DNA of 64,000 bases, taken from contig JBGTEY010000009.1 in NCBI GenBank assembly GCA_041747555.1, positions 26,473 through 90,472 on the forward strand. Reading direction: 5' to 3'. Below, piece after piece: positions 16,900 through 38,651 of the stretch (position 1 is the first letter of the stretch; each line of letters starts with the position of its first letter). The notes beneath the pieces are model-generated. The model was not told the DNA's origin and made no database searches. It worked only from the letters and a program-made list of their open reading frames with translations. This DNA is from Patescibacteria group bacterium (lineage in GTDB: Bacteria; Patescibacteriota; Microgenomatia; UBA1400; PJMF01). Both the position numbers and the translations under genes were made by a program.

Positions 16900-16928
16900 A
16901 GAGTGATAGTATACTTTATGTTTGATAT

Positions 16929-17975: not shown

Positions 17976-17992
17976 CGGAAGCGGTGGGATTC
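17976..17992. repeat. attL: 17-bp exact direct repeat (CGGAAGCGGTGGGATTC), the displaced 3' end of tRNA-Ser(GCT)
   Basis: Identical 17-mer at about 35716..35732 inside the 3' end of tRNA-Ser(GCT). It lies 12 bp downstream of the ATP-grasp stop codon. Confidence 0.65.
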
Positions 17993-20392: not shown

Positions 20393-21691
20393 TCAGCCAA
20401 TGCTTTCCCTAAGCTTCTTATAACCTTCAAACCCATCTTGGAACTTATCTGTGTAGTCAAAAGTTGTAAATGTGTAGTCCTGTACAGTACCGGTAATTAC
20501 CATTTGACGTATTTTTCTGAACCCTAGCTCCGAAAGAGCATTCTTAACTTGTTCATCGGTTGTGAATCCCCATACTGCCAAAAGAGTTCTACTGATTCTA
20601 ATCTTTGTAAGAGTGTTGTCTTTTAATCGAAATCTGGCCTCTGAATAATCTCCAGCCGTTATTATATCCCAGCTATCGAATAATACCCCGTCATTTTGTA
20701 GTAAAACTGGTGGGTGGTATGCACCGATCTCATTTGCTACAAGCTCAAAGAATGCTCCTGAGGGGACTCTTCGTTGTGTCAGTTCTCTTCTGGCAAAAAA
20801 CCTGTTTCCATTAATATCTGAGAATTCTACAAAAACGTTCAGATCTCTTATTTCTTCATTGAAAATTTGAGTAGTAGAGATAGGAAATTCAACCTCTTTT
20901 TCCTTTTGTGGATCAAGAATAAAAGGTGTTATTCCAGATCTCCACTCGAATGCAAATCCTCGTATGCCCCAAACGATATCGACCGCATTGTGAGCACTTA
21001 CGTTTTTAATGGTAAAGTAAGCAAAATGACCGTTTGGGCCACCACTGGCTCCGATATTTGGAGTAATAAAAAGTGTGGGAACTGATTGTTCCTTTTTCTC
21101 CTCAACGAACTCCACGCTTGATTGAACACCGTTCGTAGAGGCCTTTACAAGATAACCGTGCTTTGTGGTGATACTTACAACCTTCTCAATCAACTCTTGC
21201 GGTGCTTTGTCCTCAGGGTCAATGCGAATTTCGCCAGTTTGACCAACAATAAAATGGACATGCTCTCCAGATTTTTCCGAACGGTCGCCAATAATGATAT
21301 GAAAATCTTTCCCTTGATCAACGGTTCTTACCCATAAATTATCGTTTTTCAGATTCTTAATTATCCGCTCTCTCTGATCAACACTCTTGTCGTCGATTAC
21401 ATACACATCCATTTCTTCAACCCTGCGACTAATGAATGACAACATGTCTACAAGACAATTTTCAATGAGATCCTTTCTTTTTCCTGCACGCGCCCACTTT
21501 TGAAACTCTTTAAATGAGTTTTCTAATCCTTCACCCACGTCCGAAGAAAAATTCCTAAAAATCGCAATTATTCTATTGATCTTTTCAATCTGTTTGATGT
21601 CGTTTGGACTTTTAATGAAGGTGTCCATTTCAAGAGAGGAATATATCCCCCTTATCTCAGCTACATATTTTGGTTTATCCACTGCTTTCAT
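20393..21691 (-). CDS. Hypothetical protein (432 aa)
   Basis: ORF only; tightly spaced with the flanking genes. Confidence 0.45.
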   Translation of the reverse strand: MKAVDKPKYVAEIRGIYSSLEMDTFIKSPNDIKQIEKINRIIAIFRNFSSDVGEGLENSFKEFQKWARAGKRKDLIENCLVDMLSFISRRVEEMDVYVIDDKSVDQRERIIKNLKNDNLWVRTVDQGKDFHIIIGDRSEKSGEHVHFIVGQTGEIRIDPEDKAPQELIEKVVSITTKHGYLVKASTNGVQSSVEFVEEKKEQSVPTLFITPNIGASGGPNGHFAYFTIKNVSAHNAVDIVWGIRGFAFEWRSGITPFILDPQKEKEVEFPISTTQIFNEEIRDLNVFVEFSDINGNRFFARRELTQRRVPSGAFFELVANEIGAYHPPVLLQNDGVLFDSWDIITAGDYSEARFRLKDNTLTKIRISRTLLAVWGFTTDEQVKNALSELGFRKIRQMVITGTVQDYTFTTFDYTDKFQDGFEGYKKLRESIG

Positions 21692-21939: not shown

Positions 21940-22734
21940 ATGGAAGAAAAATACATTCTAAAAACCAAATCACATGAGGACTGGCGTAACTATCTATTAG
22001 TAAACAGCTTCTTCTTTGCAGTCCTTATCCAACATTTCAGAAAAAGACTTGAGATTCCCCCGGACGGGATTGGGTCTGCAACTGAGATCATTTTATGGGA
22101 GCGTCATAATATGCAGCAGCTTGCAGACACTTTACGCAACAAATCAAAAGGCGGAACAAAATCAGTAACACGACAGATGGAGGAATATTATGGATTAGAT
22201 TTCGTTATTCGACAAAAGTTGTTCGAGCCAATATATGAGTTAATTGAAAAGTTTCACAATTTCAATCTGAATTTTGAACTACTAAAAGTATACACATTAG
22301 GTCATACAAACATGTCGTTTCCTGGAAGTACTAAGGTTTTACTTGTAACTTCTCCGAGCGATCCAATTACTGAAACAGGAGTATATATAAAGTACACTCC
22401 TGAATTAACAAATAAAGAGCTAGCAAATTTGAAAAAACAGGCTGCGGAGGGCTACCAAACTCTTTCGAGAACTAAAGGATTTAAGATTAAGGGGAATGAA
22501 AAAAGTCGAAAAGCCCCTAAAAAAGATAGCTTAGAAGTATATTTAACTATTGAGAAATATCTTATTGAACAAAAAATATCAAAGCCTAATTCATTTAATA
22601 TTAATCCTATCTTTGAGATTGTCGCTGAAAAGTTAAAGACTAAGCCAGGTACCGTCAGAAGAAAATATTATTCAATAATTAATAACTTTCAACTCCCATC
22701 ACTCCATGAAGTAAGTCTTATTCCAACAAATTGA
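21940..22734 (+). CDS. Hypothetical protein
   Basis: ORF only. Confidence 0.4.
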   Translation: MEEKYILKTKSHEDWRNYLLVNSFFFAVLIQHFRKRLEIPPDGIGSATEIILWERHNMQQLADTLRNKSKGGTKSVTRQMEEYYGLDFVIRQKLFEPIYELIEKFHNFNLNFELLKVYTLGHTNMSFPGSTKVLLVTSPSDPITETGVYIKYTPELTNKELANLKKQAAEGYQTLSRTKGFKIKGNEKSRKAPKKDSLEVYLTIEKYLIEQKISKPNSFNINPIFEIVAEKLKTKPGTVRRKYYSIINNFQLPSLHEVSLIPTN

Positions 22735-24087: not shown

Positions 24088-24811
24088 CATTTTTGAGTTA
24101 GGATCACACTATCTTGCCTGCGGTGATGCGCTAGACACAAAAATTGTGAACCGTCTTCTTGGTGATAGGAAAGTTTCTCTAGTTTTGACTGATATGCCGT
24201 ACGGCGTTGGATATGTAGAGAACAAGTTTGAATTTAATCACATCAGTAAGTCGAAAATTATCACGAACGACCACGAACAGACTGACCAAGAATATCGAGT
24301 GTTTACTAAAGGTTGGCTCAATTTGATAAAGCCATACTTGGCCGAAAAGAATAGCTACTATCTTTTTAATTCAGATAAGATGCTTTTTGCCATGCGGGAG
24401 GGGCTGGTTGAGGAAGGATTTAAGTTTGCCCAACTTCTTATCTGGGTTAAAAATCATGTTGTCCTTGGGAGGCTTAATTATCTTCCACAACATGAATTAA
24501 TTGCGTATGGCTGGTATGGCAGACATGCATTCCAGAAATCACAAGATAAAAGCGTCTTGTTTTATCCAAAACCAAACAAGAGCCCACTACACCCAACAAT
24601 GAAACCAGTCGGGTTGCTTCGCAACCTTATCCTAAACAGCTCAAAAACCGATGACTGGGTATATGACCCGTTTCTGGGTTCAGGATCTACTTTGGTGGCG
24701 TGTGAGCAAACCAAGCGAAGGTGTTTGGGGATAGAGCTTGATCCCGAATACTGCCAAGTCATTATTGATCGTTTTGAAAAAGTTACCAATAAAAAAGCTA
24801 AAAAACTATGA
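24068..24811 (+). CDS. DNA methyltransferase (N6-adenine/N4-cytosine, DPPY-type)
   Basis: DMPY motif (LVLTDMPYGVGY) and SAM motif DPFLGSGSTLVACEQTKRRCLGIELDP. Confidence 0.7.
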   Translation: MLIQKNDIFELGSHYLACGDALDTKIVNRLLGDRKVSLVLTDMPYGVGYVENKFEFNHISKSKIITNDHEQTDQEYRVFTKGWLNLIKPYLAEKNSYYLFNSDKMLFAMREGLVEEGFKFAQLLIWVKNHVVLGRLNYLPQHELIAYGWYGRHAFQKSQDKSVLFYPKPNKSPLHPTMKPVGLLRNLILNSSKTDDWVYDPFLGSGSTLVACEQTKRRCLGIELDPEYCQVIIDRFEKVTNKKAKKL

Positions 24812-25245
24812 ATAACAAAGATAACCAAATTACAGTCAGAGATCGTATAAAAGTTGAACAGGATCTATTGGTTGAGCAATTGAAGAAAACTCCAATCGTC
24901 CAAGTAGCCTGTGAGAAATGTGGCGTGGGTCGCTCGACCTACTATCGTTGGAGAAAAGAAGATGCGGAATTTACTCAACAGAGTGACCAGGCATTACTCG
25001 ATGGAAGCCTGTTGGTTAACGATATGGCAGAGTCACAACTGATGAGTGCTATTAAAGATAAAAACATGACGGCTATTATTTTTTGGTTAAAACACCATCA
25101 TCCTGCGTACCTTACTAAGGTCGAGATTACTTCAAGTCAAATGAAAGACCCGATGCTAACAGCAGAACAAGAAGACTCAGTCAGGAAAGCTTTGCTCATG
25201 GCAGGAATCATTAAACCAGAGGTGCAAAAAATAGAAAATGAATAA
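24808..25245 (+). CDS. Putative terminase small subunit (HTH)
   Basis: HTH segment (ACEKCGVGRSTYYRWRKED) directly upstream of the terminase large subunit, with a 4-bp overlap. Confidence 0.45.
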   Translation: MNNKDNQITVRDRIKVEQDLLVEQLKKTPIVQVACEKCGVGRSTYYRWRKEDAEFTQQSDQALLDGSLLVNDMAESQLMSAIKDKNMTAIIFWLKHHHPAYLTKVEITSSQMKDPMLTAEQEDSVRKALLMAGIIKPEVQKIENE

Positions 25246-26770
25246 CACTATATTAGATCAATTATTTGCAGATCAGTCTGTTCGGAGAGAATCAGCAAGA
25301 CAAAGCCATATTCTCTTCTTTCATATGTATTTTAGTGAGTATGTAAAATATCCAACTGCCGACTTTCAAAAGACGATTTTTAAACTTACACAGAAAAGTA
25401 ACTGTCCAGAAGTATTCATTATGGCTTTTCGTAGTTCAGGTAAAACAACCATCCTAAGTAACTCGTACCCAATCTGGGCAATTATTGGTGAGCAACAGAA
25501 AAAGTTTGTTGTTATCGTGAGTCAAACACAAAGCCAGTGTAGGCAAATCCTTAACAATATAAGGAGAGAATTAGAATCAAACGATCTTCTCAAAAAGGAT
25601 TTTGGACCATTTACTGATGGGACTGGCGAGTGGAGTTCAAGCTCACTTGAACTAACTAAATATGGTGCAAGAATTACTGCTGTATCTACTGGGGAAAGTA
25701 TACGTGGACTCAGGCATGGCCCTCATCGACCAGACCTGATAATTCTGGATGACGTAGAGGATATCAATTCGGTCAAGACATTAGATAACAGACAAAGCAT
25801 TTATCGTTGGTTTACCAGTGAAATTAAACCCCTTGGTGATATTGGAACGAGAATTGTCGTGGTTGGGAATCTCCTCCATGAGGATTCATTAATGATGAAG
25901 CTTAAAGAATATGACAATAATATTGGGCAAAATAGTGTATTTATTGAATTCCCACTTGTTGATGAGGATGGTGTAATTCTTTGGCCGCAAAAGTTTACAC
26001 AAGAAAGAATTGATGAACTGAGACGCGAAACAATTGATAGTGGTTCATTTGAGCGAGAGTACTTGCTTCAGATTGTTCCAGATGATCAGCAAATCATACA
26101 AAGATCGTGGATCAAGAAGTACAGTATTATTCTTCCAGCGAGAGAGATTCCAAGACCGAGAATGATTTTGATTGCAATTGATCTTGCTATCAAAAAGGGT
26201 GATGGGCGAGATTTTACCTCGATGGTTCCAATGTATGTAACAGGATATGATAAAACTCTCCAAGCATATGTTCTGCCTAACATAATCAATAAACAACTAG
26301 ACTTTCCTGAAACCGTTGAAGCAATTAAAAAATTACATGCGGAATTGAAAGAAACCTTTGGCATCATTCCTAGGATTTTTGTAGAAAGTGTTGGATATCA
26401 GGATGCGGTGGTACAACAATTATTTTTGGTAGAGAAACTCATGGCAGAACCAGTATCAGTTGGGCACCTCGATAAAGCTTCTCGATTGAGGCTTGTTTCT
26501 CCATATGTGCAACTTGGAAAGGTATTCTTCCCTGAATTGGGAGCCGAGCCATTGATAAATCAGTTGCTCAACATTCATTCCACTAAACATGATGATCTGG
26601 CAGATGCCTTTACTATTGGATTAAGCAAAATTATTGAAAGTGATCAGCCTTATTATTCAACCAGGATTAAGACTGAGGATAAGCCACATTATGTACTAAA
26701 TGAGATTACTGGACAATGGCACGATCTATCAAAACCATTCACAGCTGGTATGTTAGATATGAAGTATTAG
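25238..26770 (+). CDS. Phage terminase large subunit
   Basis: Walker A motif (AFRSSGKTTIL), Walker B motif (DLIILDDVED), and a C-terminal RNaseH-like nuclease half. Confidence 0.75.
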   Translation: MNNTILDQLFADQSVRRESARQSHILFFHMYFSEYVKYPTADFQKTIFKLTQKSNCPEVFIMAFRSSGKTTILSNSYPIWAIIGEQQKKFVVIVSQTQSQCRQILNNIRRELESNDLLKKDFGPFTDGTGEWSSSSLELTKYGARITAVSTGESIRGLRHGPHRPDLIILDDVEDINSVKTLDNRQSIYRWFTSEIKPLGDIGTRIVVVGNLLHEDSLMMKLKEYDNNIGQNSVFIEFPLVDEDGVILWPQKFTQERIDELRRETIDSGSFEREYLLQIVPDDQQIIQRSWIKKYSIILPAREIPRPRMILIAIDLAIKKGDGRDFTSMVPMYVTGYDKTLQAYVLPNIINKQLDFPETVEAIKKLHAELKETFGIIPRIFVESVGYQDAVVQQLFLVEKLMAEPVSVGHLDKASRLRLVSPYVQLGKVFFPELGAEPLINQLLNIHSTKHDDLADAFTIGLSKIIESDQPYYSTRIKTEDKPHYVLNEITGQWHDLSKPFTAGMLDMKY

Positions 26771-27257: not shown

Positions 27258-27506
27258 GTGGATAACCCAAGCATCTCTTTAGAGAATAAGAGTATGCGAA
27301 AAAATGCAAAGCTGCCTAAGCTTTTGGGCAAGCGAATACAGAAACGCCGAAAGGAAATTGGCTTAAGCCAAGAGAAGCTCGGTGACAAGATCGGTATTAG
27401 CCGTGCGTACATGGGCTACATCGAACAGGGTCGATATGGACCCTCTTTAGAGGTTTTGGAGAAAATTGCCAAAGCCATCGGTATTCCACTGAAACAACTA
27501 TTCTAA
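27258..27506 (+). CDS. XRE-family HTH transcriptional regulator
   Basis: RRKEIGLSQEKLGDKIGISRAYMGYIEQGRYGPSLEVLEKIAKAIG. Confidence 0.7.
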   Translation: MDNPSISLENKSMRKNAKLPKLLGKRIQKRRKEIGLSQEKLGDKIGISRAYMGYIEQGRYGPSLEVLEKIAKAIGIPLKQLF

Positions 27507-27714
27507 TCCTGATTTGTCCTTATAGTATCTTCAGCCTGGACTTCCAGAATAATTGGGGTATCTTGTGTTTTGACAATGCTAGCTAGAAATAAGTACAAAA
27601 TAATAACTCTTGCACTAGACGCAAAAATATTTCTATAAATATCTCCTTAAACACGTAAATCTTAACAACGAAGCACAAAGTCAAAAAGGAGTGTAAAAAA
27701 TAAACACTTGCAAA

Positions 27715-27729
27715 CGCAACTAAGTTGCG
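27715..27729. promoter_or_regulatory. 15-bp palindrome (CGCAACT-A-AGTTGCG), candidate operator upstream of the Fur-family regulator start
   Basis: Perfect 7-1-7 inverted repeat about 15 bp upstream of the likely ATG at 27744. It lies inside the TTG-initiated long version of the ORF. Confidence 0.35.
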
Positions 27730-27743
27730 GTAACATATGGTCT

Positions 27744-28148
27744 ATGAAACAGGCCAGTGTCGATAAATTACTAAAAGAGAGCAACCTCAAGAACACAAAA
27801 GTTCGCAGGGAAATTTTTCAGATATTTGGAGATACGGATAACCCCATAGATGCCTTAGAGTTTACGGAAAAAATTAAGGTCAACAAGACCAGCATTTACA
27901 GAGAATTGAAGATTTTACTTGCTAAAGGTCTTATTTTAGAAATCGATTTTGGCGATGGAAAGAAACGATACGAGCTATCCTCTCTAGATCACCACCACCA
28001 CCTTATCTGCACGAGCTGTAAGTCAGTCAGTGATGTTCAACTTAAACAGGACTTGTCTTCAGAAGAAGAACGTATAGAAAAAGAAGAGTCATTCAAGGTT
28101 CAACGGCACAACCTTGAGTTTTTTGGATTATGTGCCGGTTGTAGATAA
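27744..28148 (+). CDS. Fur-family metalloregulator (Zur/Nur-like); alternative TTG start at 27708
   Basis: HHHHLICTSC motif and a C-terminal CAGC (two CxxC pairs), plus a winged-helix N-terminus. It is the first gene of a translationally coupled six-gene operon ending in a COG0523 GTPase. Confidence 0.65.
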   Translation: MKQASVDKLLKESNLKNTKVRREIFQIFGDTDNPIDALEFTEKIKVNKTSIYRELKILLAKGLILEIDFGDGKKRYELSSLDHHHHLICTSCKSVSDVQLKQDLSSEEERIEKEESFKVQRHNLEFFGLCAGCR

Positions 28149-28152
28149 ATTT

Positions 28153-29100
28153 ATGAGAATAGCATTTGTTGGAAAAGGTGGAGCAGGTAAAAGTACTTTC
28201 TCTACTTTGTTTTTTCTAAACCTAATCAAACAAAACAAAAAGGCCATGTGCTTTGACGCTGACTTAAATATTCATGTTCCAAAATTATTAGGAATGGACT
28301 TTCCTGAGAAAAAATCTCTCTCTTCAAATGAAAACACGAAGAAAATAAGAAAATACTTAATTGGCAAGAGCAAGAAAATACAAAGCGTTGACCATTTTTA
28401 TAAAACAACTCCACCTTCAAAGGGGGTTAATTTATTCGAAATACATCCAGATAATGAAGTCATCATAGAGTTTGCTGAACCATATAAAGACGGCTATGTG
28501 GCAGTAGTAGGAACTTATGAGGAAGGTGAAATTGGAAGAAGCTGCTATCACACCAACCTCTCAGTCTTAGAAAATTTACTTACGTTTGCAAAATTAAGCG
28601 ATGACGACTGGATTGTCACAGACATGGTAGCTGGAATCGATGCATTTTCTAACACACTTCATAAACAATTTGATGCACTTTTTTTGATAGTTGAGCCGAC
28701 ACAAGAAAGCATCACAGTTTACGACCAGTATTTGAAGCTTGCCAAGCATGCAGGTATTAATGATCGATTATTTGTCATTGGTAACAAAATAGAAGATAAA
28801 GAAGACGAAAAATTTATAGCCTCAAATATTCCAGCAGATAAATACTTAGGATCACTTAAGAAAAGTCCTGAGCTTAAAAAACTCAGGCAGCAAGGTTCGC
28901 CTCTAAACACAGATATCCTTTCTTCCCTTGACCAGCCATTATTTGAAAAATTAGTCGAACTCAGTAAAAAACTTCGCAAAGATCCTAATGATAGATTGAA
29001 AGAACTATATCAATTGCACCTGAAGTATATTGATCAAGATTACGTCAAAAACGCTGTTGGAGATCTCTCAGGTCAAATCGATAAGGAGTTCCAACTTTAG
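28153..29100 (+). CDS. MinD/ParA-superfamily ATPase, CooC-like (metallocentre-insertion type)
   Basis: Deviant Walker A motif (AFVGKGGAGKSTFS). The likely start MRIAFVG lies 4 nt after the Fur stop; the track ORF begins at 28114. Confidence 0.6.
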   Translation: MRIAFVGKGGAGKSTFSTLFFLNLIKQNKKAMCFDADLNIHVPKLLGMDFPEKKSLSSNENTKKIRKYLIGKSKKIQSVDHFYKTTPPSKGVNLFEIHPDNEVIIEFAEPYKDGYVAVVGTYEEGEIGRSCYHTNLSVLENLLTFAKLSDDDWIVTDMVAGIDAFSNTLHKQFDALFLIVEPTQESITVYDQYLKLAKHAGINDRLFVIGNKIEDKEDEKFIASNIPADKYLGSLKKSPELKKLRQQGSPLNTDILSSLDQPLFEKLVELSKKLRKDPNDRLKELYQLHLKYIDQDYVKNAVGDLSGQIDKEFQL

Positions 29101-29103
29101 CGT

Positions 29104-30525
29104 ATGTTTACATTAACACCTTTAGTCGCTTCACATATCCAAGACACTTTGTCTGATAAAAATAAGATTTTCGAATGGATTAATGCCTTTGGCTCACCCC
29201 TAAACATTATTTACCCTAGAACTGTCACTGACAATATTACTAAATTTCAGAAAGTCTTTTCATCTCACAAACTTAAGGGTGAAATTTTCTACGCCTACAA
29301 AGCGAATAAGTCAGTAGCTATTCTAAAACAACTTGCAATTTCAAACGGAAAGATTGATGTTGCCTCAGAGAAAGAGCTTCAAAAAGCCCTCTCAGCTGGA
29401 TTTGTAGGACAAAGGATAGAGGCCACAGGTCCTAAAAATGACTCATTTATTAAGCTTGCACTACTTCATGGCGTTACCCTCAATGTCAATAGTCCACAGG
29501 AGCTGGAGACAATTAAGCAGTTAAAGAAGGATCTTGTTGTAACTGACTTCACTCAGATATTTATTAGACTAAAAGAGTTTAAATCGAACAAAATTGACAT
29601 AGTTCAGAAAGATGCGAAGTTCGGTTTTAGCATAGAAGAAGCACAAAAAGCAATTGAAATATTAAAAAACTCTGAGATGTTGGAATTTTATGGATTTTCT
29701 TTTCATCTACCTACAATAAGTGAGCAAGAAAGAGTTGTCGCAATTGAACAGTCTCTTGACCTAACTCTGCAAGCGATTAAAGCCGGATTGAACCCTAAAG
29801 GAATAAACATAGGTGGTGGCTTCAGTGCGAACTTCTTAAAAAACGAGAAAGAATGGCACAACTATATTTCCGCCATTAAAGATTCCCTTATCGACCCCTA
29901 TAAGCCTTCCATGAGCTGGAATCAATCAGGACTTGGATATTGGGCTGAAAGAGGAAAAATACGAGGCTCCGCAAAATTCTCGGACTTCTATCGATCCTCT
30001 GATCAGTTTGAGGAGCTCGATAAGATTCTCAATGCAAAAACTCCAACTTTTAGAAAGATTGACCAATTCCTTCAAGAAAACATGCTGACTTTATTTATAG
30101 AACCAGGCAGATCATCACTTGATCAAGCTGGAGTAACTTTGGCAAAAGTAGTTTCTATAAATAAATCTCTCAAAGGCGAAACAGTAGTCTTTCTTGATAT
30201 GAACAGATCACATATAAATTCCATTGAGCTTGAGTTCATGGCTGACCCAATAGTAATTTCTTCAAAAGAAAAAACTTCAAAACCAGCAACCAATGGGGTT
30301 TTCTTGAGTGGAAACTTATGCTTGCCACATGATTTTATTTGTAGAAGAAAAGTATTTCTCAAAGAGAACTTAGAACCCGGAGATATTTTAGCATTCATAA
30401 ATACCGCAGGTTATTTTATGGACTTTACGGAAAGTGAAACCATTCAACACCCAACGGCTTACAAAATTGCTGTCGATTCATCAACATGGTCACTTGATGA
30501 GAAATATGAACCTAAATTTAATTGA
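29104..30525 (+). CDS. PLP-dependent decarboxylase, fold type III (Orn/DAP/Arg decarboxylase family; SbnH/LysA-like)
   Basis: PLP-lysine motif YAYKAN (similar to YAVKAN) and the two-domain alanine-racemase-like barrel architecture. Confidence 0.65.
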   Translation: MFTLTPLVASHIQDTLSDKNKIFEWINAFGSPLNIIYPRTVTDNITKFQKVFSSHKLKGEIFYAYKANKSVAILKQLAISNGKIDVASEKELQKALSAGFVGQRIEATGPKNDSFIKLALLHGVTLNVNSPQELETIKQLKKDLVVTDFTQIFIRLKEFKSNKIDIVQKDAKFGFSIEEAQKAIEILKNSEMLEFYGFSFHLPTISEQERVVAIEQSLDLTLQAIKAGLNPKGINIGGGFSANFLKNEKEWHNYISAIKDSLIDPYKPSMSWNQSGLGYWAERGKIRGSAKFSDFYRSSDQFEELDKILNAKTPTFRKIDQFLQENMLTLFIEPGRSSLDQAGVTLAKVVSINKSLKGETVVFLDMNRSHINSIELEFMADPIVISSKEKTSKPATNGVFLSGNLCLPHDFICRRKVFLKENLEPGDILAFINTAGYFMDFTESETIQHPTAYKIAVDSSTWSLDEKYEPKFN

Positions 30526-31829
30526 AACCTATGTTAGTTCAATCTATCACCGATTTAATCGGAAACACACCATTATTGAAAATCCCATCACATGTGCATG
30601 GGCTTAAGAATATTGAAGTTTATGCCAAGCTTGAGCTCTTTAACCCTTGGGGATCGGTAAAGGACAGAACCGCATGGGGTATTCTGAAACCTCACTTAGA
30701 CGAACTTAAGAATAAGCTTGTCATCGAAAGCTCTAGTGGAAATACCGCAAAGGCATTACAGATGATCGCTTCCTTGCATGGAAGTAGCCTTAAGACAATC
30801 ACTAACCGCATCAAAGTTCCTGAAGCTAAAGATGTCTTGAAACTAATTGGAGCTCAAATACAAGAACTACCGGGTAAAAGTGATTGCTACGATCCTCACG
30901 ACCCAAATGACCCGATAGTGTATATTCAACAGGAAATCGCCAAGGATCCGGATAAATACATTTATAGTGACCAATACTTCAATGACTTAAATCGCAAAAT
31001 TCACTACGACACTACGGGCAAGGAAATAGTTGATGATCTTGGAAAAGTAGACTACTTCATCGGCGGTCTTGGAACTACTGGCTCTACTCTCGGGGCAGCC
31101 CAAAGAGTAAAAGAACACAACCCTGAACTTATAGCCGTTGGTGTTGTGGCCGAGAAAGAAGACTATATTCCAGGTATTAGAAATCACGATGAAACTCTTG
31201 AAGTAGGCCTGTTTAAGCCAGAATTTTACTCAGAGATCGTAACTGTTAACTCTCATGATTCCTTAGAAGCAATGATGAAGTTGATAAAAGGGGCCGGCCT
31301 TCTTGCAGGCCCAACTACTGGAGCATCGTTTCTTGGTGCATTGCATTATTTAAAGAAAATTGACCACACACTAACTGAAACAAAGAAAGCTGTATTTATA
31401 GCTTGTGACCGAGTTGAATGGTATACCTCATACGTTAGGGAACGAAAACCCGAATGGTTAGGTGAAGCTAATTCTGAAAGCTGGAAGGATAAAGTAACAA
31501 TTGATACAAGTGCCGACATCTCAACGGATGAAATTGTTAAATGGATTGATGACAATCTACCTCTAATTGTTGATTTGAGACAGCCAATTTCATTTAAAAC
31601 AGCTCATATTCCAGACTCAATTAATTTACCTTATGACCATTTGGATTCTATGTTGAACACCACAAATCCATTTTGTACTAAACAGAAGATATTGTTGGTT
31701 TGCCCATTAGGAGAAAAATCTGCTTTAGTAGCAAGTTATCTAAAAACTAAAGATATTGACGCTTATAGTTTAGGAGGAGGCATTAACGCCTGGAGAGATC
31801 AAAATTTATCACTTGAGAGAGATTTATAA
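30522..31829 (+). CDS. CysK/CysM/SbnA-family PLP enzyme (fold type II) fused to a C-terminal rhodanese domain
   Basis: PLP-lysine motif SVKDR, SSGNTAKAL, and GGLGTTGSTLG. C-terminal rhodanese with active-site Cys (LLVCPLGEKSA). Overlaps the upstream gene by 4 nt. Confidence 0.7.
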   Translation: MKPMLVQSITDLIGNTPLLKIPSHVHGLKNIEVYAKLELFNPWGSVKDRTAWGILKPHLDELKNKLVIESSSGNTAKALQMIASLHGSSLKTITNRIKVPEAKDVLKLIGAQIQELPGKSDCYDPHDPNDPIVYIQQEIAKDPDKYIYSDQYFNDLNRKIHYDTTGKEIVDDLGKVDYFIGGLGTTGSTLGAAQRVKEHNPELIAVGVVAEKEDYIPGIRNHDETLEVGLFKPEFYSEIVTVNSHDSLEAMMKLIKGAGLLAGPTTGASFLGALHYLKKIDHTLTETKKAVFIACDRVEWYTSYVRERKPEWLGEANSESWKDKVTIDTSADISTDEIVKWIDDNLPLIVDLRQPISFKTAHIPDSINLPYDHLDSMLNTTNPFCTKQKILLVCPLGEKSALVASYLKTKDIDAYSLGGGINAWRDQNLSLERDL

Positions 31830-33045
31830 TAATATGCTAAACATAAAAAACCAATTCCCATTTTTCACTAATAACCCAGGGGTCACTTATATGGATAGCG
31901 CTGCTACTACTCAGAAGCCACAGTTAGTATTAGATGCACTCACAGACTTTTATACGAGATACAATACTAACGCTGGTCGGTCTTCATACCCAATTGCAAA
32001 CAAACTAACAAAAGAGGTTGAGGAAGTAAGGGAGAAAGTTAGAAAGTTTATTAATGCGAAAGAAAAAGATGAAATTATTTTTACCTCTGGATCGACTGAT
32101 GGCTTCAATAAGGTAGCTTATACCCTAGGACTGCATTACCTTAAAGATGGCGATGAGGTTCTCTATTGTCCCCAAGACCATAAGTCATTTGTCCTTCCTT
32201 GGTTTAACGTTCAGAAACTATTAAAAAAGATAGGAATTACGATTAACCTCGTTCCTTTCAAAGTAAACAAAATGGGAAGTATTGATAGGGACGATTTATT
32301 TTCCAAAGTCACCAATAAAACAAAAATTATTAATACCACACACATTCACAACATTTATGGCGCTGATAGCGATATAAACAAAATCAGAGATTGGTTGGGA
32401 GATAAGGATATACTAATCAATGTAGATGCAACTCAAAGCGTTGGCCATCGGCTTGTTGATGTACAACAACTTGGAGCAGATACTCTCTCTTTCTCAGGTC
32501 ATAAAATGTTTGCAATTCAAGGTGTCGGGGCAACTTTTATTACCAAGAAGATTCACGAATTTATGGAGCCTGTCTTTGTAGGCGGAGGTAATGGAGTTAA
32601 ACTACATGACGGAGAAGTCAAAGTTACCAACTTCTCTCAGGCTTACGAATCTGGTACCCAAAACTATGCTGGTATATTGACGCTTGGAAAAGCCATCGAA
32701 TTTATAGAGCAAATTGGAATTGAAAACATCTATATCCATCTTTCTGAGTTAACTCAATACCTCCTGAAAGAACTGAGGGAGTTGAAGAAAATAGTATTTG
32801 TGTATGGCCCCAATTTTTGGAGTTGTGCTGATGGCGCGGGAATTCTATCATTTAAAGTAGATGGATTATCTGCTAGTGAGGTAGGCTTTATTCTCGCTGA
32901 AAACGGCATTTTAGTAAGAACTGGAGATCACTGTATAAGTAGTCGTGATGAATTTGATGACACAGTGAGAGTGAGTATGCATGTTTATAACACAACAGAA
33001 GATGTTGATAAATTAATTATAATACTCAAGAAAATGTTATCTTAA
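31813..33045 (+). CDS. Cysteine desulfurase / class V aminotransferase (NifS/SufS-like)
   Basis: PLP-lysine motif SFSGHKMF and an aminotransferase class V fold. Confidence 0.7.
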   Translation: MREIYNNMLNIKNQFPFFTNNPGVTYMDSAATTQKPQLVLDALTDFYTRYNTNAGRSSYPIANKLTKEVEEVREKVRKFINAKEKDEIIFTSGSTDGFNKVAYTLGLHYLKDGDEVLYCPQDHKSFVLPWFNVQKLLKKIGITINLVPFKVNKMGSIDRDDLFSKVTNKTKIINTTHIHNIYGADSDINKIRDWLGDKDILINVDATQSVGHRLVDVQQLGADTLSFSGHKMFAIQGVGATFITKKIHEFMEPVFVGGGNGVKLHDGEVKVTNFSQAYESGTQNYAGILTLGKAIEFIEQIGIENIYIHLSELTQYLLKELRELKKIVFVYGPNFWSCADGAGILSFKVDGLSASEVGFILAENGILVRTGDHCISSRDEFDDTVRVSMHVYNTTEDVDKLIIILKKMLS

Positions 33046-33046
33046 A

Positions 33047-33994
33047 ATGACAAAAAGAGTACCAATACTTCTAGTAACTGGCTTTTTAGGAGCTGGGAAG
33101 ACAACGTTCCTTAATTGGCTTATTCATACACACCCTCAACTGAAAGTGTCACTCATTTTGAACGAGTTTGGTGATGTAAAACTTGAAAGCCAGTTTATTA
33201 AACAAGGTTCTGGCGGAGAAGTAACGGAACTTGCTAATGGTTGTATGTGTTGTGTGGCTAAAAGCGATATACCTCGAGTTATTAACTACATTTTAGATAA
33301 TTCACCACAAACTCAATATATTCTGATTGAAGCATCAGGTCTCTCCGACCCAGATCCTATTCATGAAGCATTGCAAAATTCAGAACTTACTAAGCGGATA
33401 CGTTTAGATTCAATTTTGTGCATTGTAGATGCAGTTAACTTTGAGAAAAACAGTAAGGAACATTCAATCGTAATGTCACAAGTTGGGGATGCGGATATTG
33501 TACTTGTCTCCAAAGTAGCTGAAGCTGGAGAAGAAACAGTAGCAAAGATTAAAAATCTGTTAACTGGAATAGGAACTGGAACAAAAGTTCTTGAGTTTAG
33601 CGATGATCTCGATCCACGACTATTTTTGGATCCAGATATAAAAACAGAGGGCGATAAATACGAAAACGAGAATGTTGACACAAAGGAAGAGCATCACCAT
33701 CACACTCACGAACAAATGCAGGAATATTGGTTCAAAAGTGAGAACGACATTGACATTAATAAGCTTCAAGACGTAATGAGATCAGCTCCCATGGGGATTA
33801 TACGAGCCAAGGGATTTGTAAAATCTGGGAGTAACAAATACCTGTTCCAATATGTGGGGACAAAATTAGAATTAGAAGAAAGTAGCTGGCAGATTCTCGA
33901 ATACAAAAGCACAAAACTACTGTTTCTTGGCAAAAACTTTGACGAGAAAGACTGGCAGATTAAACTACAATCTACGGAAATCGTTAATCCTTAA
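33047..33994 (+). CDS. COG0523 (CobW/ZigA/YeiR-like) G3E-family GTPase metallochaperone
   Basis: P-loop (GFLGAGKTT), GCxCC motif (NGCMCCVAK), and a His-rich stretch (EEHHHHTHEQ). Confidence 0.75.
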   Translation: MTKRVPILLVTGFLGAGKTTFLNWLIHTHPQLKVSLILNEFGDVKLESQFIKQGSGGEVTELANGCMCCVAKSDIPRVINYILDNSPQTQYILIEASGLSDPDPIHEALQNSELTKRIRLDSILCIVDAVNFEKNSKEHSIVMSQVGDADIVLVSKVAEAGEETVAKIKNLLTGIGTGTKVLEFSDDLDPRLFLDPDIKTEGDKYENENVDTKEEHHHHTHEQMQEYWFKSENDIDINKLQDVMRSAPMGIIRAKGFVKSGSNKYLFQYVGTKLELEESSWQILEYKSTKLLFLGKNFDEKDWQIKLQSTEIVNP

Positions 33995-34150
33995 GATTTT
34001 TGAGGGTGACACTCAGTGCAATGCTTTCCATTAGGATGCTCACAGGTTTCCTGTTCACAAAGTACCTGAGTAATATCGGGCATTTTTTGTGTTGGTTATA
34101 GTAATCTTGCGACTAGACTTCCTCGCCCCTTCCCGATACCTTGTGTCCTG

Positions 34151-35464
34151 ATGAAAGATAATATCAGGCTAAAATACTGCTTATACGCCCGTAAATCAAG
34201 CGAATCGGACGAACGACAAGCAATGTCCATTGACGGTCAGCTCAAAGAAATGCAGCTTCTTGCCAAGAGAGAGAAGCTCGACATTACGGAAACAATTACA
34301 GAAAGCCACTCTGCCAAAGAATCAGGACAACGACCAGAGTTTAATAATCTTCTCCATGGAGTAATCGAAGGAAGATATAACAGCATCCTCACATGGGCAC
34401 CCGATCGGTTATCTCGAAATGCTGGTGACTTAGGACGAATCGTTGATTTAATGGATCAAGGCAAACTGACTCATATCAAAACTTATTCTCAATCTTTCAC
34501 AGACAATCCAAATGAGAAATTCTTACTGATGATTCTCTGCTCACAAGCAAAGCTGGAGAATGATAATCGAGGCGTCAATGTTAAACGAGGATTACGGAAC
34601 AAATGCCAGATTGGGATTAGACCAGGGGTTGCACCGATCGGCTATCGAAACGTGCTGAAAGTAAATCGCATCTCAACAGTGGAGCTAGATCCTGAACGAG
34701 CACCCGTCATTAAGCAGATATTTCACAAAGTTGCTGATCAAGGGTTCTCTGGTCGAATGGTTAAAAAATGGCTGGACGATATCGGATTCACCACAAAGAG
34801 TGGATGCAAAATGCCACTGAGCAAAATCTATGTCGCCCTCCAAAATGCTTTTTACTACGGCGAATTTCAGTATGGAAACATATGGTACAAAGGCACCTAC
34901 GAGACACTCATCACAAAAGCGTTATTTGAAAGAGTCCAAATCCAACTCCAAGTTGCACCGAGACAATGGAATAAACAACTGTTTCCGTTCAAGAAAATTT
35001 GTATTTGCGGATCATGCGGTGGAAGTGTTACGGCAGAACTCAAATATAGAAGAACCAAAGCAAACATCGTTAACTCACATATTTATTATCACTGTAATCG
35101 AATCAAGAAATATGATTGTCCTGAGCCCTATATTACGGAGCAGGAGTTGATCAAACAACTCATCGGTTATTTACCAAAAATTAAACTCAACACCTCGTAC
35201 TTAATGCAGGAGTTCGAGATAGAAGTGAAACGGTTACAACATTTTAAAGCAACCGTGACTAGTGACTATATACCCCGAGTTGAGATTACTCCTCATAATA
35301 CTGGCGACCAAAATCCCAGAGAATATAACGAAACACATACAGAGATGCTTAAAGAATACCTTCTCCATGTCCTTCAGTTTGGAACTCCAGAGGAACGACT
35401 CAAAATCCTCAAAGGAGTTACTTCAAAATTCAGTCTGAGAGACAGACAACTTAATCTCCAGTAA
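34151..35464 (+). CDS. Large serine recombinase (integrase of the island)
   Basis: N-terminal resolvase/invertase catalytic domain (YARKSSESDERQAMSIDGQL), recombinase domain, and Zn-ribbon Cys cluster (CICGSCGGSV...CNRIKKYDC). It lies about 250 bp from the tRNA-Ser(GCT) 3' end. Confidence 0.8.
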   Translation: MKDNIRLKYCLYARKSSESDERQAMSIDGQLKEMQLLAKREKLDITETITESHSAKESGQRPEFNNLLHGVIEGRYNSILTWAPDRLSRNAGDLGRIVDLMDQGKLTHIKTYSQSFTDNPNEKFLLMILCSQAKLENDNRGVNVKRGLRNKCQIGIRPGVAPIGYRNVLKVNRISTVELDPERAPVIKQIFHKVADQGFSGRMVKKWLDDIGFTTKSGCKMPLSKIYVALQNAFYYGEFQYGNIWYKGTYETLITKALFERVQIQLQVAPRQWNKQLFPFKKICICGSCGGSVTAELKYRRTKANIVNSHIYYHCNRIKKYDCPEPYITEQELIKQLIGYLPKIKLNTSYLMQEFEIEVKRLQHFKATVTSDYIPRVEITPHNTGDQNPREYNETHTEMLKEYLLHVLQFGTPEERLKILKGVTSKFSLRDRQLNLQ

Positions 35465-35715
35465 ATCTGCAAAAAGTACGCAATTTCTTCAAAAGAAAAA
35501 GATTCGAACGAGCGTATTTCATTAAAATAGGGCTAAAAGTAGCTCTTTTCATCAAAAGATTAGAACCGAGCGCAAATGCCTTGAGGGTCATTTAGGCGAT
35601 TTTCAACATTACAGGCTATGTTTGGGATACTTGCGATTTCTCTCGCTTTTTTAGCAAGCCACATCAAACTAATCGAGCATAGTAGATGGGTCTTGGAGCA
35701 ACCGAAGACCTTCTG

Positions 35716-35800
35716 CGGAAGCGGTGGGATTCGAACCCACGAACCGGAAACCCGGTCAAGGTTAGCAACCTTGTGCAATTGGCCACTATGCGACGCTTCC
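35716..35800 (-). tRNA. tRNA-Ser (anticodon GCT), with attR in its 3' end
   Basis: Acceptor GGAAGCG/CGCTTCC. Anticodon stem CAAGG/CCTTG with loop TTGCTAA. Long variable arm CCGG-gttt-CCGG. T-arm GTGGGTTCGAATCCCAC. Discriminator G. Confidence 0.8.
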
Positions 35801-37176: not shown

Positions 37177-37260
37177 GGAGGTGTCGCGTAGTGGTCTATC
37201 GCAAACGCCTGGAAAGCGTTGGCTCCTTGAGCCCCGTGGGTTCGAATCCCACCACCTCCG
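37177..37260 (+). tRNA. tRNA-Ser (anticodon GGA)
   Basis: Acceptor GGAGGTG/CACCTCC. Anticodon stem AACGC/GCGTT with loop CTGGAAA. Long variable arm GGCTC-cttg-GAGCC. T-arm GTGGGTTCGAATCCCAC. Discriminator G. Confidence 0.8.
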
Positions 37261-37424
37261 CATTGATAAAAATTTGGCTTTAGCCAAATATTTATCAATA
37301 TTGCATAGGATGAGAAGTTTATGCCCGATCAAGCGAAATCATTCAGCTTATGGAAATTTGAGCCTGACGAGGGTAAATCCCACCACCTCCGCATTGATAA
37401 AAATTTGGCTTTAGCCAAATATTT
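37245..37424. repeat. 49-bp perfect direct repeat (two copies, 37245..37293 and 37376..37424) spanning the last 15 nt of tRNA-Ser(GGA) plus a downstream hairpin
   Basis: The sequence aatcccaccacctccgcattgataaaaatttggctttagccaaatattt occurs twice, about 82 bp apart, and contains a TTGGCT..AGCCAA hairpin. Confidence 0.7.
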
Positions 37425-37655: not shown

Positions 37656-38651
37656 ATGAAGTTTTTAGTCCTTTCTCATAAAAAGGATCTACACGTCAGA
37701 GCTGTTCAGAAGCATTTCTTGAACAGCTCTGATTTTTTGTTTATAAATCCAGCGTCCAAATCTGATCTTCGATATACCTATACCAGTGATGGTATGCAGG
37801 TTTTTTGCAATAATGAACTAATTCCGCTGTCTGACATACAGGCGGTTTGGACACGGAAGTATTCTTCTGCCGCATTTAGAGATCTCTATACTGAGCAAGA
37901 TACTGATCTAGAAATTCTCCAAAAGAAGCACAAGAGTATGACACAAGTAGCTTTTTTGAGAGAGTTGAGTGCTCATATAAAATTTGCAAATCCAAGCTGC
38001 TTATTTGTTAATTTTTTTCTGGATAACTTGAGAAATGAGTACAGACTGCTCCAACTTACCATGGCAAAAGACATTGGATTTACTATTCCCAACACATTGG
38101 TGTCTGAAAATAAAAAAGAAATTTTGCAGTTCTTAAATAGTCATGCATCCGTCACAAAGAGACTCTATCAGGGGGGTGTCTCATTTGGCAAAATCGGTCA
38201 TTCTTTTGGAACACTTGCGATAACTGCTTCAGATATTAAAAATCCTGATCAAAAATATTATGATTCACCTGTTTTTTTGCAAGAAAACGTTTCAAAAGAA
38301 TATGAATTACGAGTTACCGTGATTGGAAAGAAGATATTTGCCTGTAAGTTCGACAACCAGCGAGATAATTTAGCAGAAAAATCAAAACTCGATTGGAGGT
38401 TTGGCATACGGTCAATTCCGCATACTACTTACAAACTCCCTGAGCAAATTAAAGAAATGTGTTTCACATTACTAAAAAAAATGGGCCTACAATACGGCGC
38501 CATTGACATGATTAAAACCAAAGATGGACGGTATGTTTTCTTAGAAATAAACGCAAACGGCCAATTTCTTTGGATTGAAGAAGCTACGGGCATGGAAATG
38601 AGCAAAGCAATGGCGGAGTTATTGATGAACCCGAAGAAAAATAGACTTTGA
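37656..38651 (+). CDS. ATP-grasp ribosomal peptide maturase (MdnC/MdnB-like graspetide ligase)
   Basis: 331 aa. YELRVTVIGKKIFACKF...DWRFG...YGAIDMIKTKDGRYVFLEINANGQFLWIE closely parallels the MdnC segment LELRITIVGEQIF...DWRK...YGAIDMIVTPDERYIFLEINPVGEFFWLE. Confidence 0.75.
   Translation: MKFLVLSHKKDLHVRAVQKHFLNSSDFLFINPASKSDLRYTYTSDGMQVFCNNELIPLSDIQAVWTRKYSSAAFRDLYTEQDTDLEILQKKHKSMTQVAFLRELSAHIKFANPSCLFVNFFLDNLRNEYRLLQLTMAKDIGFTIPNTLVSENKKEILQFLNSHASVTKRLYQGGVSFGKIGHSFGTLAITASDIKNPDQKYYDSPVFLQENVSKEYELRVTVIGKKIFACKFDNQRDNLAEKSKLDWRFGIRSIPHTTYKLPEQIKEMCFTLLKKMGLQYGAIDMIKTKDGRYVFLEINANGQFLWIEEATGMEMSKAMAELLMNPKKNRL

Follow-up and report, generated by a model that had tools for sequence, protein, structure and literature searches.

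We analysed a window of 64,000 nucleotides (nt), the whole of the stretch taken from contig JBGTEY010000009.1 of a Patescibacteria group bacterium (assembly GCA_041747555.1), and within it an operon of six genes that is carried by a 17.7-kb phage-like element. The operon encodes, in this order, a Fur-family regulator, a CooC-like ATPase, a pyridoxal phosphate (PLP)-dependent decarboxylase of the Y4yA family, a CysM-like beta-replacement domain fused to a rhodanese, a cysteine desulfurase and a COG0523 GTPase (Table 1). A core of four of these genes recurs across distant phyla, and canonical Zur boxes stand at homologous cassettes. With slightly better than even confidence, we read the operon as a zinc-starvation pathway in which a persulfide relay, a beta-replacement and a decarboxylation would yield a thiol-amine ligand of the cysteamine type. 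The regulatory part of this reading is well supported; the product is inferred.

The operon and its conserved core

All six open reading frames (ORFs) of the original prediction were confirmed, on the plus strand and with unchanged coordinates, by ORF calls and by Pfam and NCBIfam profiles (the start of the regulator gene is discussed below). The six family assignments held as well, with profile and solved-structure matches in agreement, and every motif quoted for them (HHHH, two CxxC, YAYKAN, SVKDR, SSGNTA, SFSGHKMF, GCMCC and the His-rich run) was found in the translations. With gene starts placed as in an identical Logan contig, consecutive genes are separated by 4, 3, 5, 4 and 1 nt, a packing as tight as had been claimed for an operon. 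The gene arrangement is far beyond chance, since dozens of genomes that lie far apart in phylogeny share this neighbourhood.

To describe this neighbourhood, the six window proteins were mapped onto 88 fetched loci (numbered L002 and so on), and residues and adjacencies were counted over 83 (or about 80) of them. Clustering of ORFs was noisy in the high-GC actinobacterial loci, with their antisense ORFs, and was used only for Pfam-confirmed families. The CysM-like/rhodanese fusion has thousands of relatives, which occur in at least 597 species of a GTDB-representative collection. Its carriers include Patescibacteria, Melainabacteria/Obscuribacterales, Cyanobacteria, Micavibrio, Bdellovibrionota, Clostridia (Alkaliphilus metalliredigens), Bacillales, Acidobacteria, Streptomyces, Nocardia and Actinoplanes, and relatives of the cassette were also found in Candidatus Spechtbacteria and Candidatus Lithacetigena. 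The decarboxylase gene lies directly 5' of the fusion gene in 82 of the 83 compared loci, and most loci contain a cysteine desulfurase gene. Of the non-actinobacterial loci, 24 have a CooC-like gene; a Fur-family gene occurs in 18 loci, its position and orientation varying between them. Among the loci examined, the COG0523 gene lies inside the operon only in the window and in a sister element (L093/L097); in L047, L095 and L096 it is near the cassette, outside the operon. The conserved unit is thus a four-gene core of CooC-like ATPase, decarboxylase, fusion protein and desulfurase, reduced to three genes in Actinobacteria, and the COG0523 GTPase is an accessory gene outside it. The expectation that the six-gene block would be found in other genomes was therefore borne out as to co-localisation, the decarboxylase-fusion pair usually being joined by the desulfurase, but the unit that is conserved comprises four genes and not six.

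Catalytic residues are conserved together with gene order. The PLP lysines, the Asn loop, Cys391 of the rhodanese and the Cys-x3-Asp of the decarboxylase are invariant, and the His-Lys pair and catalytic Cys of the desulfurase nearly invariant, over about 80 loci. Around the core, accessory genes in other genomes encode a CopZ-like HMA protein (Nocardia), GNAT proteins, a flavin amine oxidase, methyltransferases and ATP-grasp enzymes. Neighbouring genes include those for CsoR and a copper ATPase (L007) and for MerC, MFS and RND proteins (cyanobacteria); the Alkaliphilus cassette adjoins a ZnuA/ABC-3 transporter and cbiMQO, and katG lies directly 3' of the L003 cassette. No partner gene of the SbnB/ornithine-cyclodeaminase or IucA/IucC type was found in the cassettes, neither in the window nor by ORF clustering in about 80 loci.

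Some loci have unusual layouts. On a Patescibacteria contig (L095, 5189-6181), the order Fur-CooC-decarboxylase-fusion stands directly 3' of cas1, with msrA and a COG0523 gene on the opposite side and no adjacent desulfurase gene. Two decarboxylase-fusion pairs in inverted orientation were seen in the Bdellovibrionota loci L034 and L047, and two CooC-like genes about 8 kb apart in the cyanobacterial loci L020 and L025.

Two other identities of the gene set were considered and rejected. A relocated housekeeping set of CysK, LysA and SufS was ruled out by the gene neighbourhoods and by scores that all fall under the NCBIfam equivalog cut-offs (lysA, 136 versus 298; cysK, 133 versus 351; cysM, 151 versus 394; sufS subfamily, 348 versus 475), so that the enzymes are distinct from housekeeping CysK, LysA and IscS, as had been supposed. 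An anti-phage defence system in the position of a prophage "moron" was discarded too: PADLOC gave only a generic match of the desulfurase to SspA/DndA, with no partner genes. Full-text literature searches brought up no paper on the cassette, only the Nur box, a review of Zur, the y4y cluster and background on SbnA, SbnH and SbnI. The claim that no pathway of such composition had been described stood up as far as these searches and the June-2026 NCBIfam library show.

The operator and the metal

The regulator gene most likely starts at ATG 27744 and not at TTG 27708, because the gene call for its L093 homologue begins at the corresponding ATG and gives a protein of 134 aa, and because the palindrome discussed here is intergenic in related loci. 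With this start, the perfect 15-bp palindrome CGCAACTAAGTTGCG, which occurs once in the window, would sit in the promoter between TTGCAA and TAACAT and not inside the gene. The palindrome had been described as a feature of the gene start; its presence, length and perfection were confirmed, but it appears to be a promoter operator of the 6-5-6 type. The putative promoter agrees with the consensus at 8 of 12 positions and is too weak for a promoter scan to list it. With 7 nt between the end of its -10 element and the regulator ATG, the mRNA probably has little or no leader. The same promoter layout recurs in L093 (TTGCAA-N17-TAATAT) and in L007 (TTGACA-N17-TAGTAT).

Boxes of the window type were found 5' of homologous cassettes or their Fur genes in L002, L007 (two), L010, L016 (at the cassette and at the Fur gene), L018 (two), L024, L034, L047, L092 (two) and L093 (two). 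Perfect TGCAA-N5-TTGCA is present in L002, L007, L010, L016, L018 and L024, where the window reads cGCAA-CTAAG-TTGCg. The operator is conserved across phyla, with fixed arms and variable 5-nt spacers, and overlaps promoters. A motif scan against known boxes, as had been proposed, gave a divided answer: the palindrome follows the same 6-5-6 plan as the Nur box of Streptomyces, tTGCaa-N5-ttGCAA (PMC2691836), but is no known Zur box.

A second TGCAA-type box, TGCAACTCATATGCA, was seen in A. metalliredigens QYMF (L002, 12753-12767), 76 nt 5' of cbiM, with no Fur-family gene within 10 kb. This box may also control the Ni/Co energy-coupling factor (ECF) transporter.

The regulator itself matches the Pfam FUR profile (PF01475, 6.7e-22), and its CxxC motifs CTSC and CAGC would form a structural Cys4 zinc site as in Zur. 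The nickel site of Nur consists of His70 and His72, in the wing, and His126 (PMC2691836). In an approximate register against the same source, the regulator has no His at residues 45-82 and carries Glu-x-Asp near the place of the His-x-His, and Nur (3eyy) is its 13th-best solved match. With no histidines in the wing and Nur so far down the list of solved matches, orthology to Nur was rejected. The Fur-family proteins linked to cassettes also lack the His residue that we take to be shared by the N-terminal domains of Fur and PerR. The regulator is probably an autoregulated sensor of zinc (or nickel).

Besides the window type, two further types of operator stand 5' of homologous cassettes. In Micavibrio (L023), the sequence AAATGTTATAATATAACATTT, 79 nt 5' of the first gene, has 0 mismatches to the E. 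coli Zur motif TRWNAYRWTATAWYRTNWCA, which is published (PMC6103462). Zur sites with one mismatch lie 5' of the L003 cassette and 5' of the adjacent zur-like gene, and of the four sites with at most one mismatch in 1.42 Mb of loci, three are these L023 and L003 sites. The regulators encoded in or beside the L003, L019 and L023 cassettes presumably resemble E. coli Zur; the Micavibrio cassette ends with its regulator gene. Perfect copies of TGAAAA-N3-TTTTCA, which we take to be the Zur-box type of Actinobacteria and Firmicutes, stand 5' of a cyanobacterial cassette (L004) and of the cassette-leading Fur gene in L028 (Bacillales) and L077, and L026 has a one-mismatch copy 5' of its Fur gene. The Zur boxes of Actinobacteria and Firmicutes share features (PMC6103462).

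In at least nine actinobacterial loci of about 70% GC (L027, L052, L053, L054, L059, L071, L082, L088 and L091, at about 10540-11000), an AT-rich palindrome resembling a Zur box and nearly perfect as TGAAAA-N3-TTTTCA, TGGAAACCGTTTTCA with variants, was seen directly 3' of the desulfurase gene. L091 has a perfect TGAAAACCGTTTTCA copy. These palindromes precede variable genes, among them methyltransferase and ATP-grasp genes and genes without an assigned family.

From these sites we read the cassette as a probable part, in many lineages, of the response to zinc starvation. It appears to travel with its own Fur-family sensor and operator in Patescibacteria and some further groups, and, by analogy with the homologous cassettes, the metal is most likely zinc. 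The earlier proposal of a response to zinc or nickel thus gained support, with zinc favoured through the canonical Zur boxes at homologous cassettes, although the box of the window is Nur-like. Neighbouring genes count for zinc as well, namely the ZnuA/ABC-3 transporter by the Alkaliphilus cassette and the COG0523 genes that five loci (window, L097, L095/L096 and L047) have within the cassette or close to it. The thiophilic-metal neighbours (CsoR with the copper ATPase, the CopZ-like HMA protein, and MerC, MFS and RND proteins) are counted for a metal ligand.

The two NTPases also bear on the metal. The ATPase is a P-loop protein of the CbiA/MinD type, to which, among solved structures, only CooC (PDB 3kje, 2.5e-12) is strongly related. 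Where CooC has a C-x-C nickel site, the aligned position reads SCYH, and all 25 homologues compared share C-[YF]-H. Such a motif could make up a Cys2His2 site across a dimer and suits a putative metal-handling ATPase. The designation as a CooC-type ATPase was upheld as regards the fold, the deviant Walker A motif and the 3kje match, but C-x-C is replaced by C-x-H and there is no association with carbon monoxide dehydrogenase/acetyl-CoA synthase (CODH/ACS), whose genes were absent from the annotated neighbourhoods examined; hydrogenase and urease genes were absent from the loci examined. The GTPase scored above the cut-offs of both COG0523 profiles (PF02492, 141 bits; PF07683, 46 bits), and GCMCC and EEHHHHTHE are present in its translation. 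The subgroup models gave 101 versus a cut-off of 600 for ZigA and 140 versus 332 for CobW, and the closest named relatives are "GTP-binding proteins" of Patescibacteria. COG0523 proteins are common among Zur-regulon members (PMC6103462), and this one is a candidate metallochaperone of the zinc type.

Nickel is the main alternative metal for the window regulator. A nickel system would combine a Nur-like sensor with a CooC-like ATPase that inserts nickel, and the pathway would provide a nickel N,S ligand or mature a nickel centre. The likeness to Nur and CooC is real in two respects, as the operator of the window has the form of the Nur box and the ATPase is closest to the nickel insertase CooC among solved structures; moreover, the Alkaliphilus cassette adjoins cbiMQO with the same box, and N2S2 thiolate-amine ligands bind Ni(II) well as a matter of general chemistry. 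We nevertheless consider nickel unlikely, given the regulator without wing histidines, the invariant C-x-H in place of C-x-C, the loci without CODH, hydrogenase or urease genes, the canonical Zur boxes at homologous cassettes and the COG0523 proteins typical of Zur regulons.

PerR models score the regulator nearly as well as Fur models do, which raises a different kind of operon, either one for peroxide stress that makes a protective low-molecular-weight thiol or one for a lanthionine- or thialysine-type antimetabolite of episymbionts, predators and actinomycetes. The katG gene directly 3' of the L003 cassette, the msrA gene adjoining that of L095, carriers such as Micavibrio and Bdellovibrionota (predators), Patescibacteria and Streptomyces, and the LysA-like decarboxylase would also fit such an operon. 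However, the regulators have no counterpart of the N-terminal His that PerR presumably needs (His37 in B. subtilis), the Zur boxes, COG0523 protein, CooC-like ATPase and metal-transporter neighbours point to metal, and the cassette comes with no gene for immunity or resistance. Both variants strike us as highly improbable.

Proposed chemistry of the core and related pathways

The fusion protein consists of a CysM-like domain (about 30546-31409) and a rhodanese (about 31524-31799) with the active-site loop C391-P-L-G-E-K-S. Residues K44, SSGN, C119 and C391 are invariant in the 83 loci, and so is the six-residue rhodanese loop of Cys391. For the AlphaFold 2 model (predicted local distance difference test, pLDDT, 88.7) the top Foldseek match was the fungal aspergillomarasmine A (AMA) synthetase (8H4H/8H4Q, E 6e-31), which also matched by sequence (2e-27) and whose chains are labelled "Rhodanese domain-containing protein"; SbnA (5d84) was among the solved matches and M. 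tuberculosis CysM (3dwg) among the fold matches. The SbnA model TIGR03945 gave 150.4 bits versus a cut-off of 349.95, and the CysM and cysKM models score equally. The C-terminal motifs presumably resemble those of E. coli CysM. A MoeZ-type rhodanese, which the original prediction had listed as a candidate, was not found: in the MoeZ/MoeB models only the rhodanese part of the fusion aligns (residues 328-433), and the N-terminal domain is PALP in place of a ThiF/MoeB adenylyltransferase domain.

Compared with CysM, residues 117-128 of the fusion (window 30879-30914) form a family-specific insertion, S-[DE]-C-x-D-P-x-D-P-N-D-P. Cys119 and Pro122 are conserved in it, Asp121 is found in 82 of the 83 loci, and the pLDDT is about 70-80 there. 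The insertion could be a site that binds a metal or another cation, or that relays a persulfide.

The decarboxylase has the conserved residues K66, E333-P-G, C406 and D410. It is 28% identical to Y4yA-family genes over 96% of its length (E 1e-47 to 1e-50), and its homologues P0194 and P0230 (38-40% identity) carry the NCBI name "Y4yA family PLP-dependent enzyme". SbnH (6knh) is among its solved matches, and the solved protein nearest to it in sequence, BtrK, decarboxylates an amino acid that is bound to a carrier protein and so offers a precedent for a tethered substrate. The desulfurase has the PLP Lys (SGHKM) and the catalytic Cys (GDHC) and matches SufS 5j8q at 4.8e-72. It is of the SufS type in the window, other Patescibacteria, Alkaliphilus and Actinobacteria, and of the IscS/NifS/DndA type in the cyanobacterial, Micavibrio and L003 cassettes. 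Such non-orthologous replacement by lineage argues that its role is the mobilisation and supply of sulfur, for which the invariant rhodanese Cys would be the obvious acceptor.

The proposed zinc-starvation pathway can be laid out as follows. The metal-bound Fur-family protein would sit on the GCAA-N5-TTGC palindrome and repress; shortage of the metal would release it and turn all six genes on. The desulfurase would then transfer cysteine sulfur as a persulfide to Cys391 of the rhodanese, and the CysM-like domain would form aminoacrylate from O-phosphoserine (or O-acetylserine), to which the persulfide sulfur would add to give an S-linked cysteine unit. Free aminothiols form thiazolidines with PLP, and the unit might remain disulfide-tethered to the rhodanese, its thiol being kept from PLP in this way. 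The decarboxylase, of the Y4yA/SbnH type, would remove the alpha-carboxylate, possibly on the tethered unit, and leave a 2-aminoethanethiol N,S ligand. This ligand might be released free or, in some lineages, be elaborated by GNAT, amine oxidase, methyltransferase or ATP-grasp enzymes, while the CooC-like ATPase and, in the window, the COG0523 GTPase would handle the scarce metal.

One observation agrees with O-phosphoserine as the substrate. In L092, an unannotated ORF (5999-6394) between the Fur and CooC-like genes is a homologue of y4yB (BLASTP, 29% identity, E 1e-16), and thus SerK/SbnI-like. It overlaps an over-long call of the CooC gene and has no counterpart in the window or the other loci. 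Pfam gave no match for y4yB itself or for the small ORFs around the L003 and L092 cassettes.

Several points weigh against this pathway. The product and the chemistry of the core are deduced from the genes. Passing cysteine sulfur into a cysteine-like unit looks circular, unless the logic of tethering and decarboxylation holds. AMA synthetase and SbnA form C-N and not C-S bonds, and about ten loci have no desulfurase gene within 8 kb. CooC belongs to a nickel insertase family, and the Alkaliphilus cbiMQO genes are preceded by the same box. Generic Fur and PerR models give the regulator its highest scores, and the window's own operator is Nur-box-like and no canonical Zur box, for which reasons zinc is argued here by analogy with homologous cassettes. 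Finally, the window operon contains no transporter gene, so an exported metallophore is not indicated and an intracellular ligand or buffer fits better.

The closest comparisons are with chelator pathways. AMA is a zinc-chelating aminopolycarboxylate that inhibits metallo-beta-lactamases (PMC7586795). Its synthetase, which was solved with O-phosphoserine, has the same two domains as the fusion, a PLP domain of the CysK/CBS fold and, C-terminal to it, a rhodanese-like one. However, the two are only 22-23% identical, the synthetase makes C-N bonds, and the sequence match stops short of the rhodanese active-site loop; the bacterial family, unlike AMA synthetase, has the invariant rhodanese Cys and the C-x-D-P insertion. 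To our knowledge, AMA synthetase has no decarboxylase, desulfurase or CooC-like ATPase as a partner. The staphyloferrin B enzymes SbnA, SbnH and SbnI of Staphylococcus aureus provide the precedent for a CysK-fold enzyme working alongside a PLP decarboxylase of fold type III. O-Phosphoserine is the product of serine kinases of the SbnI type. SbnA uses it as its substrate, SbnH makes a 2-aminoethyl from a 2-amino-2-carboxyethyl unit, and the pathway is under Fur-family repression (PMC7139808). The cassette differs in having neither SbnB nor an NIS synthetase (SbnC/E/F), and its nucleophile is presumably sulfur and not the glutamate nitrogen.

The analogy with SbnA and SbnH drawn in the original prediction was strengthened by the genomic company of Y4yA, as a pair of Y4yA and an SbnA-like protein recurs in clusters of the metallophore type. 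In Sinorhizobium fredii, y4yB-y4yA-y4xP-y4xO-y4xN-y4xM encode a ParB-N/SerK-like protein, Y4yA, an SbnA-like protein, an opine dehydrogenase, an IucA/IucC protein and an MFS protein. Y4yA stands there beside a CysK-family gene, in the same order as in the window, but Y4xP has no rhodanese, the opine dehydrogenase, IucA/IucC and MFS genes are additional, and a desulfurase and a CooC-like gene are lacking. The role of the y4y cluster has been termed "enigmatic" (PMC3973906). Mycobacterium avium plasmids carry Y4yA with SbnA-like, ornithine-cyclodeaminase and MATE genes, beside CsoR and a multicopper oxidase; by gene content, both clusters qualify as metallophore-type contexts, where a 2-amino-2-carboxyethyl unit would be attached by the CysK-fold enzyme and turned into 2-aminoethyl by the decarboxylase, as with SbnA and SbnH. 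The composition of the M. avium cluster, SbnA-like/ornithine-cyclodeaminase/Y4yA/MATE, recalls a further chelator, [S,S]-ethylenediaminedisuccinate ([S,S]-EDDS) of Amycolatopsis japonicum, which is Zur-controlled and whose assembly uses enzymes like SbnA, SbnB and diaminopimelate decarboxylase. As a zincophore, EDDS is repressed by zinc (PMC7586795). The cassette differs from its pathway in having no ornithine-cyclodeaminase and in having a sulfur relay, and a thiol or thioether would be expected in place of a second amine.

These likenesses define an alternative in which the cassette would itself make an AMA- or EDDS-like aminopolycarboxylate: a C-N bond would be formed, for example between Asp and O-phosphoserine, decarboxylation would give an N-(2-aminoethyl) amino acid, and the rhodanese and desulfurase would be regulatory or act elsewhere. 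The best fold match and its identical architecture, the SbnA score close to those of the CysM models, the Y4yA partners in diaminopropionate-type clusters and the roughly ten loci with no desulfurase nearby would all suit it. What we find hard to explain without sulfur transfer is a desulfurase that is present in most loci and replaced non-orthologously; the invariance of Cys391 and its six-residue loop, the cassettes without SbnB/ornithine-cyclodeaminase or IucA/IucC partners and the presumed CysM-like C-terminal motifs argue in the same direction. An aminopolycarboxylate product is quite unlikely in our judgement. The system would be a sulfur counterpart of the SbnA/SbnH and EDDS modules, which lead from diaminopropionate to ethylenediamine, and of AMA-synthase chemistry; it is widespread and, as far as the literature searches and NCBIfam show, undescribed.

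A second alternative keeps the sulfur and drops the secreted ligand. The operon would be a zinc-sparing route of sulfur trafficking, or a cysteine bypass, that carries protein persulfide to cysteine or to Fe-S and thio-cofactors and replaces a zinc-dependent step such as SufU under zinc shortage, in the manner of CysM-CysO of Mycobacterium tuberculosis. Zur regulons often encode zinc-free substitutes (PMC6103462), the window operon has no exporter, and the CysM-like domain resembles M. tuberculosis CysM, whose donor is protein-bound: in both systems a CysM-type enzyme would use protein-carried sulfur, not free sulfide. In contrast to CysM-CysO, the cassette would employ a persulfide on a fused rhodanese and not a ThiS-like thiocarboxylate, it has no MoeZ or Mec, and a decarboxylase is linked to it. 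This linked decarboxylase (82 of 83 loci) would be left unexplained by a bypass, as would the amine oxidase, GNAT and methyltransferase add-ons and the MFS and MerC neighbours. Moreover, with sulfur taken from cysteine, cysteine synthesis would be net-zero, and the scattered phyletic distribution and mobile carriage point to an accessory function. We regard a bypass as very unlikely and retain the thiol-amine ligand as the preferred product.

A bolder version of the ligand pathway is tentative, and we would not bet on it: a new class of thiolate-amine metallophore, or of intracellular zinc (nickel) ligand, might be made by a persulfide-fed PLP assembly line with a disulfide-tethered intermediate and be loaded with metal by the C-x-H ATPase, the whole forming a portable kit for zinc starvation, equipped with its own Fur-family sensor and 6-5-6 operator, that has spread across phyla and, in Patescibacteria, moves on phage-like elements.

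If the zinc-starvation pathway is correct, it would represent a widespread route, in at least 597 species of many phyla, to a sulfur-containing metal ligand under Zur-type control, and the chelator pathways of SbnA, AMA synthase and EDDS would be joined by a thiol/thioether branch. The "Y4yA family" decarboxylases and the C-x-H subfamily of CooC-like ATPases would then have a function. Zinc chelators of the AMA type are of interest as metallo-beta-lactamase inhibitors. Ultra-small, host-dependent Patescibacteria would gain metal-starvation functions through phage-like elements, and a portable pair of Fur-family sensor and operator would move with its target genes. Culturable carriers exist in A. 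metalliredigens QYMF, Micavibrio aeruginosavorus and Streptomyces scabiei.

The mobile element and its surroundings

Table 1. Features of the operon and of the element that carries it (window positions).
Feature	Position	Strand	Basis
attL-like 17-nt exact direct repeat CGGAAGCGGTGGGATTC, left element end	17976..17992	.	repeat search
Terminase small subunit	24808..25245	+	phrog_309, 2.3e-8
Terminase large subunit	25238..26770	+	phrog_38, 6.9e-81
XRE/cI-type HTH regulator of the element, just 5' of the operon	27258..27506	+	phrog_8, 2.4e-16
Putative promoter TTGCAA (27708-27713), 17 nt, TAACAT (27731-27736)	27708..27736	+	reading of the sequence
Putative operator, perfect palindrome CGCAAC-T-AAGTTGCG, (T/C)GCAA-N5-TTGC(A/G) 6-5-6 box	27715..27729	.	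fills promoter spacer
Fur-family regulator, 134 aa, HHHH and two CxxC	27744..28148	+	PF01475; start codon per L093 gene call
CooC-like MinD-family ATPase, deviant Walker A GKGGAGKS, C-[YF]-H	28153..29100	+	3kje match; 25-homologue alignment
Y4yA-family fold-type III PLP decarboxylase (SbnH/LysA-like)	29104..30525	+	Orn_Arg_deC_N and C-terminal barrel
CysM-like PLP beta-replacement domain and rhodanese, one protein	30531..31829	+	PALP and Rhodanese profiles
Type II (SufS-like) cysteine desulfurase	31834..33045	+	Aminotran_5; SufS 5j8q match
COG0523 (G3E) GTPase, GCMCC and HHHH-T-H run	33047..33994	+	cobW and CobW_C
Terminator-like hairpin (34065-34080) and T-run, closes the operon	34065..34090	+	terminator scan
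Large serine recombinase	34151..35464	+	Resolvase, Recombinase, Zn_ribbon_recom
tRNA-Ser(gct)	35715..35800	-	tRNA call
attR-like repeat copy, 3' end of tRNA-Ser(gct)	35716..35732	.	repeat search

The claim that the operon lies on a mobile element proved right, as 17-nt att repeats at tRNA-Ser delimit a phage-like element of 17.7 kb. By our estimate, about 0.02 such repeat pairs are expected by chance in 29 kb. The GC content drops to 0.37-0.39 from 17976 to about 34 kb. The operon is placed between the XRE repressor and the recombinase and takes up about one third of the element, which also carries a ParB-methylase gene and a methylase gene, both 5' of the terminase, and genes for an HNH and a SHOCT protein. 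No capsid, portal or tail gene was recognisable in it with Pfam and PHROGs, and the ORFs at 18204-19229, 19224-19763, 20393-21691 and 21940-22734 matched neither collection. The fusion protein had no relative in IMG/VR, and a 12.7-kb stretch had no megablast match in GenBank phages. From its gene content, the element may be satellite-like or a very divergent small phage. A sister element with the same backbone and cargo was found in another metagenome (L093 plus L097), and L092 holds a chromosomal copy of the cassette.

Further traces of mobility were seen outside the element. A 49-nt exact direct repeat is present at 37245-37293 and 37376-37424, and tRNA-Ser(gga) (37177-37261) overlaps the first copy with its 3' end. 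The repeat resembles the scar or duplicated att site that a second element, no longer present, would have left at this neighbouring tRNA-Ser. On the other side, outside attL (12913-17963), there are an rve-type transposase gene, two ATP-grasp genes (14647-15921 and 16929-17963) and a gene for a MATCAP-like peptidase (15913-16899), and a RimK-like ATP-grasp gene (37656-38651) lies beyond attR. The ATP-grasp and MATCAP genes may constitute a peptide-ligase/peptidase set.

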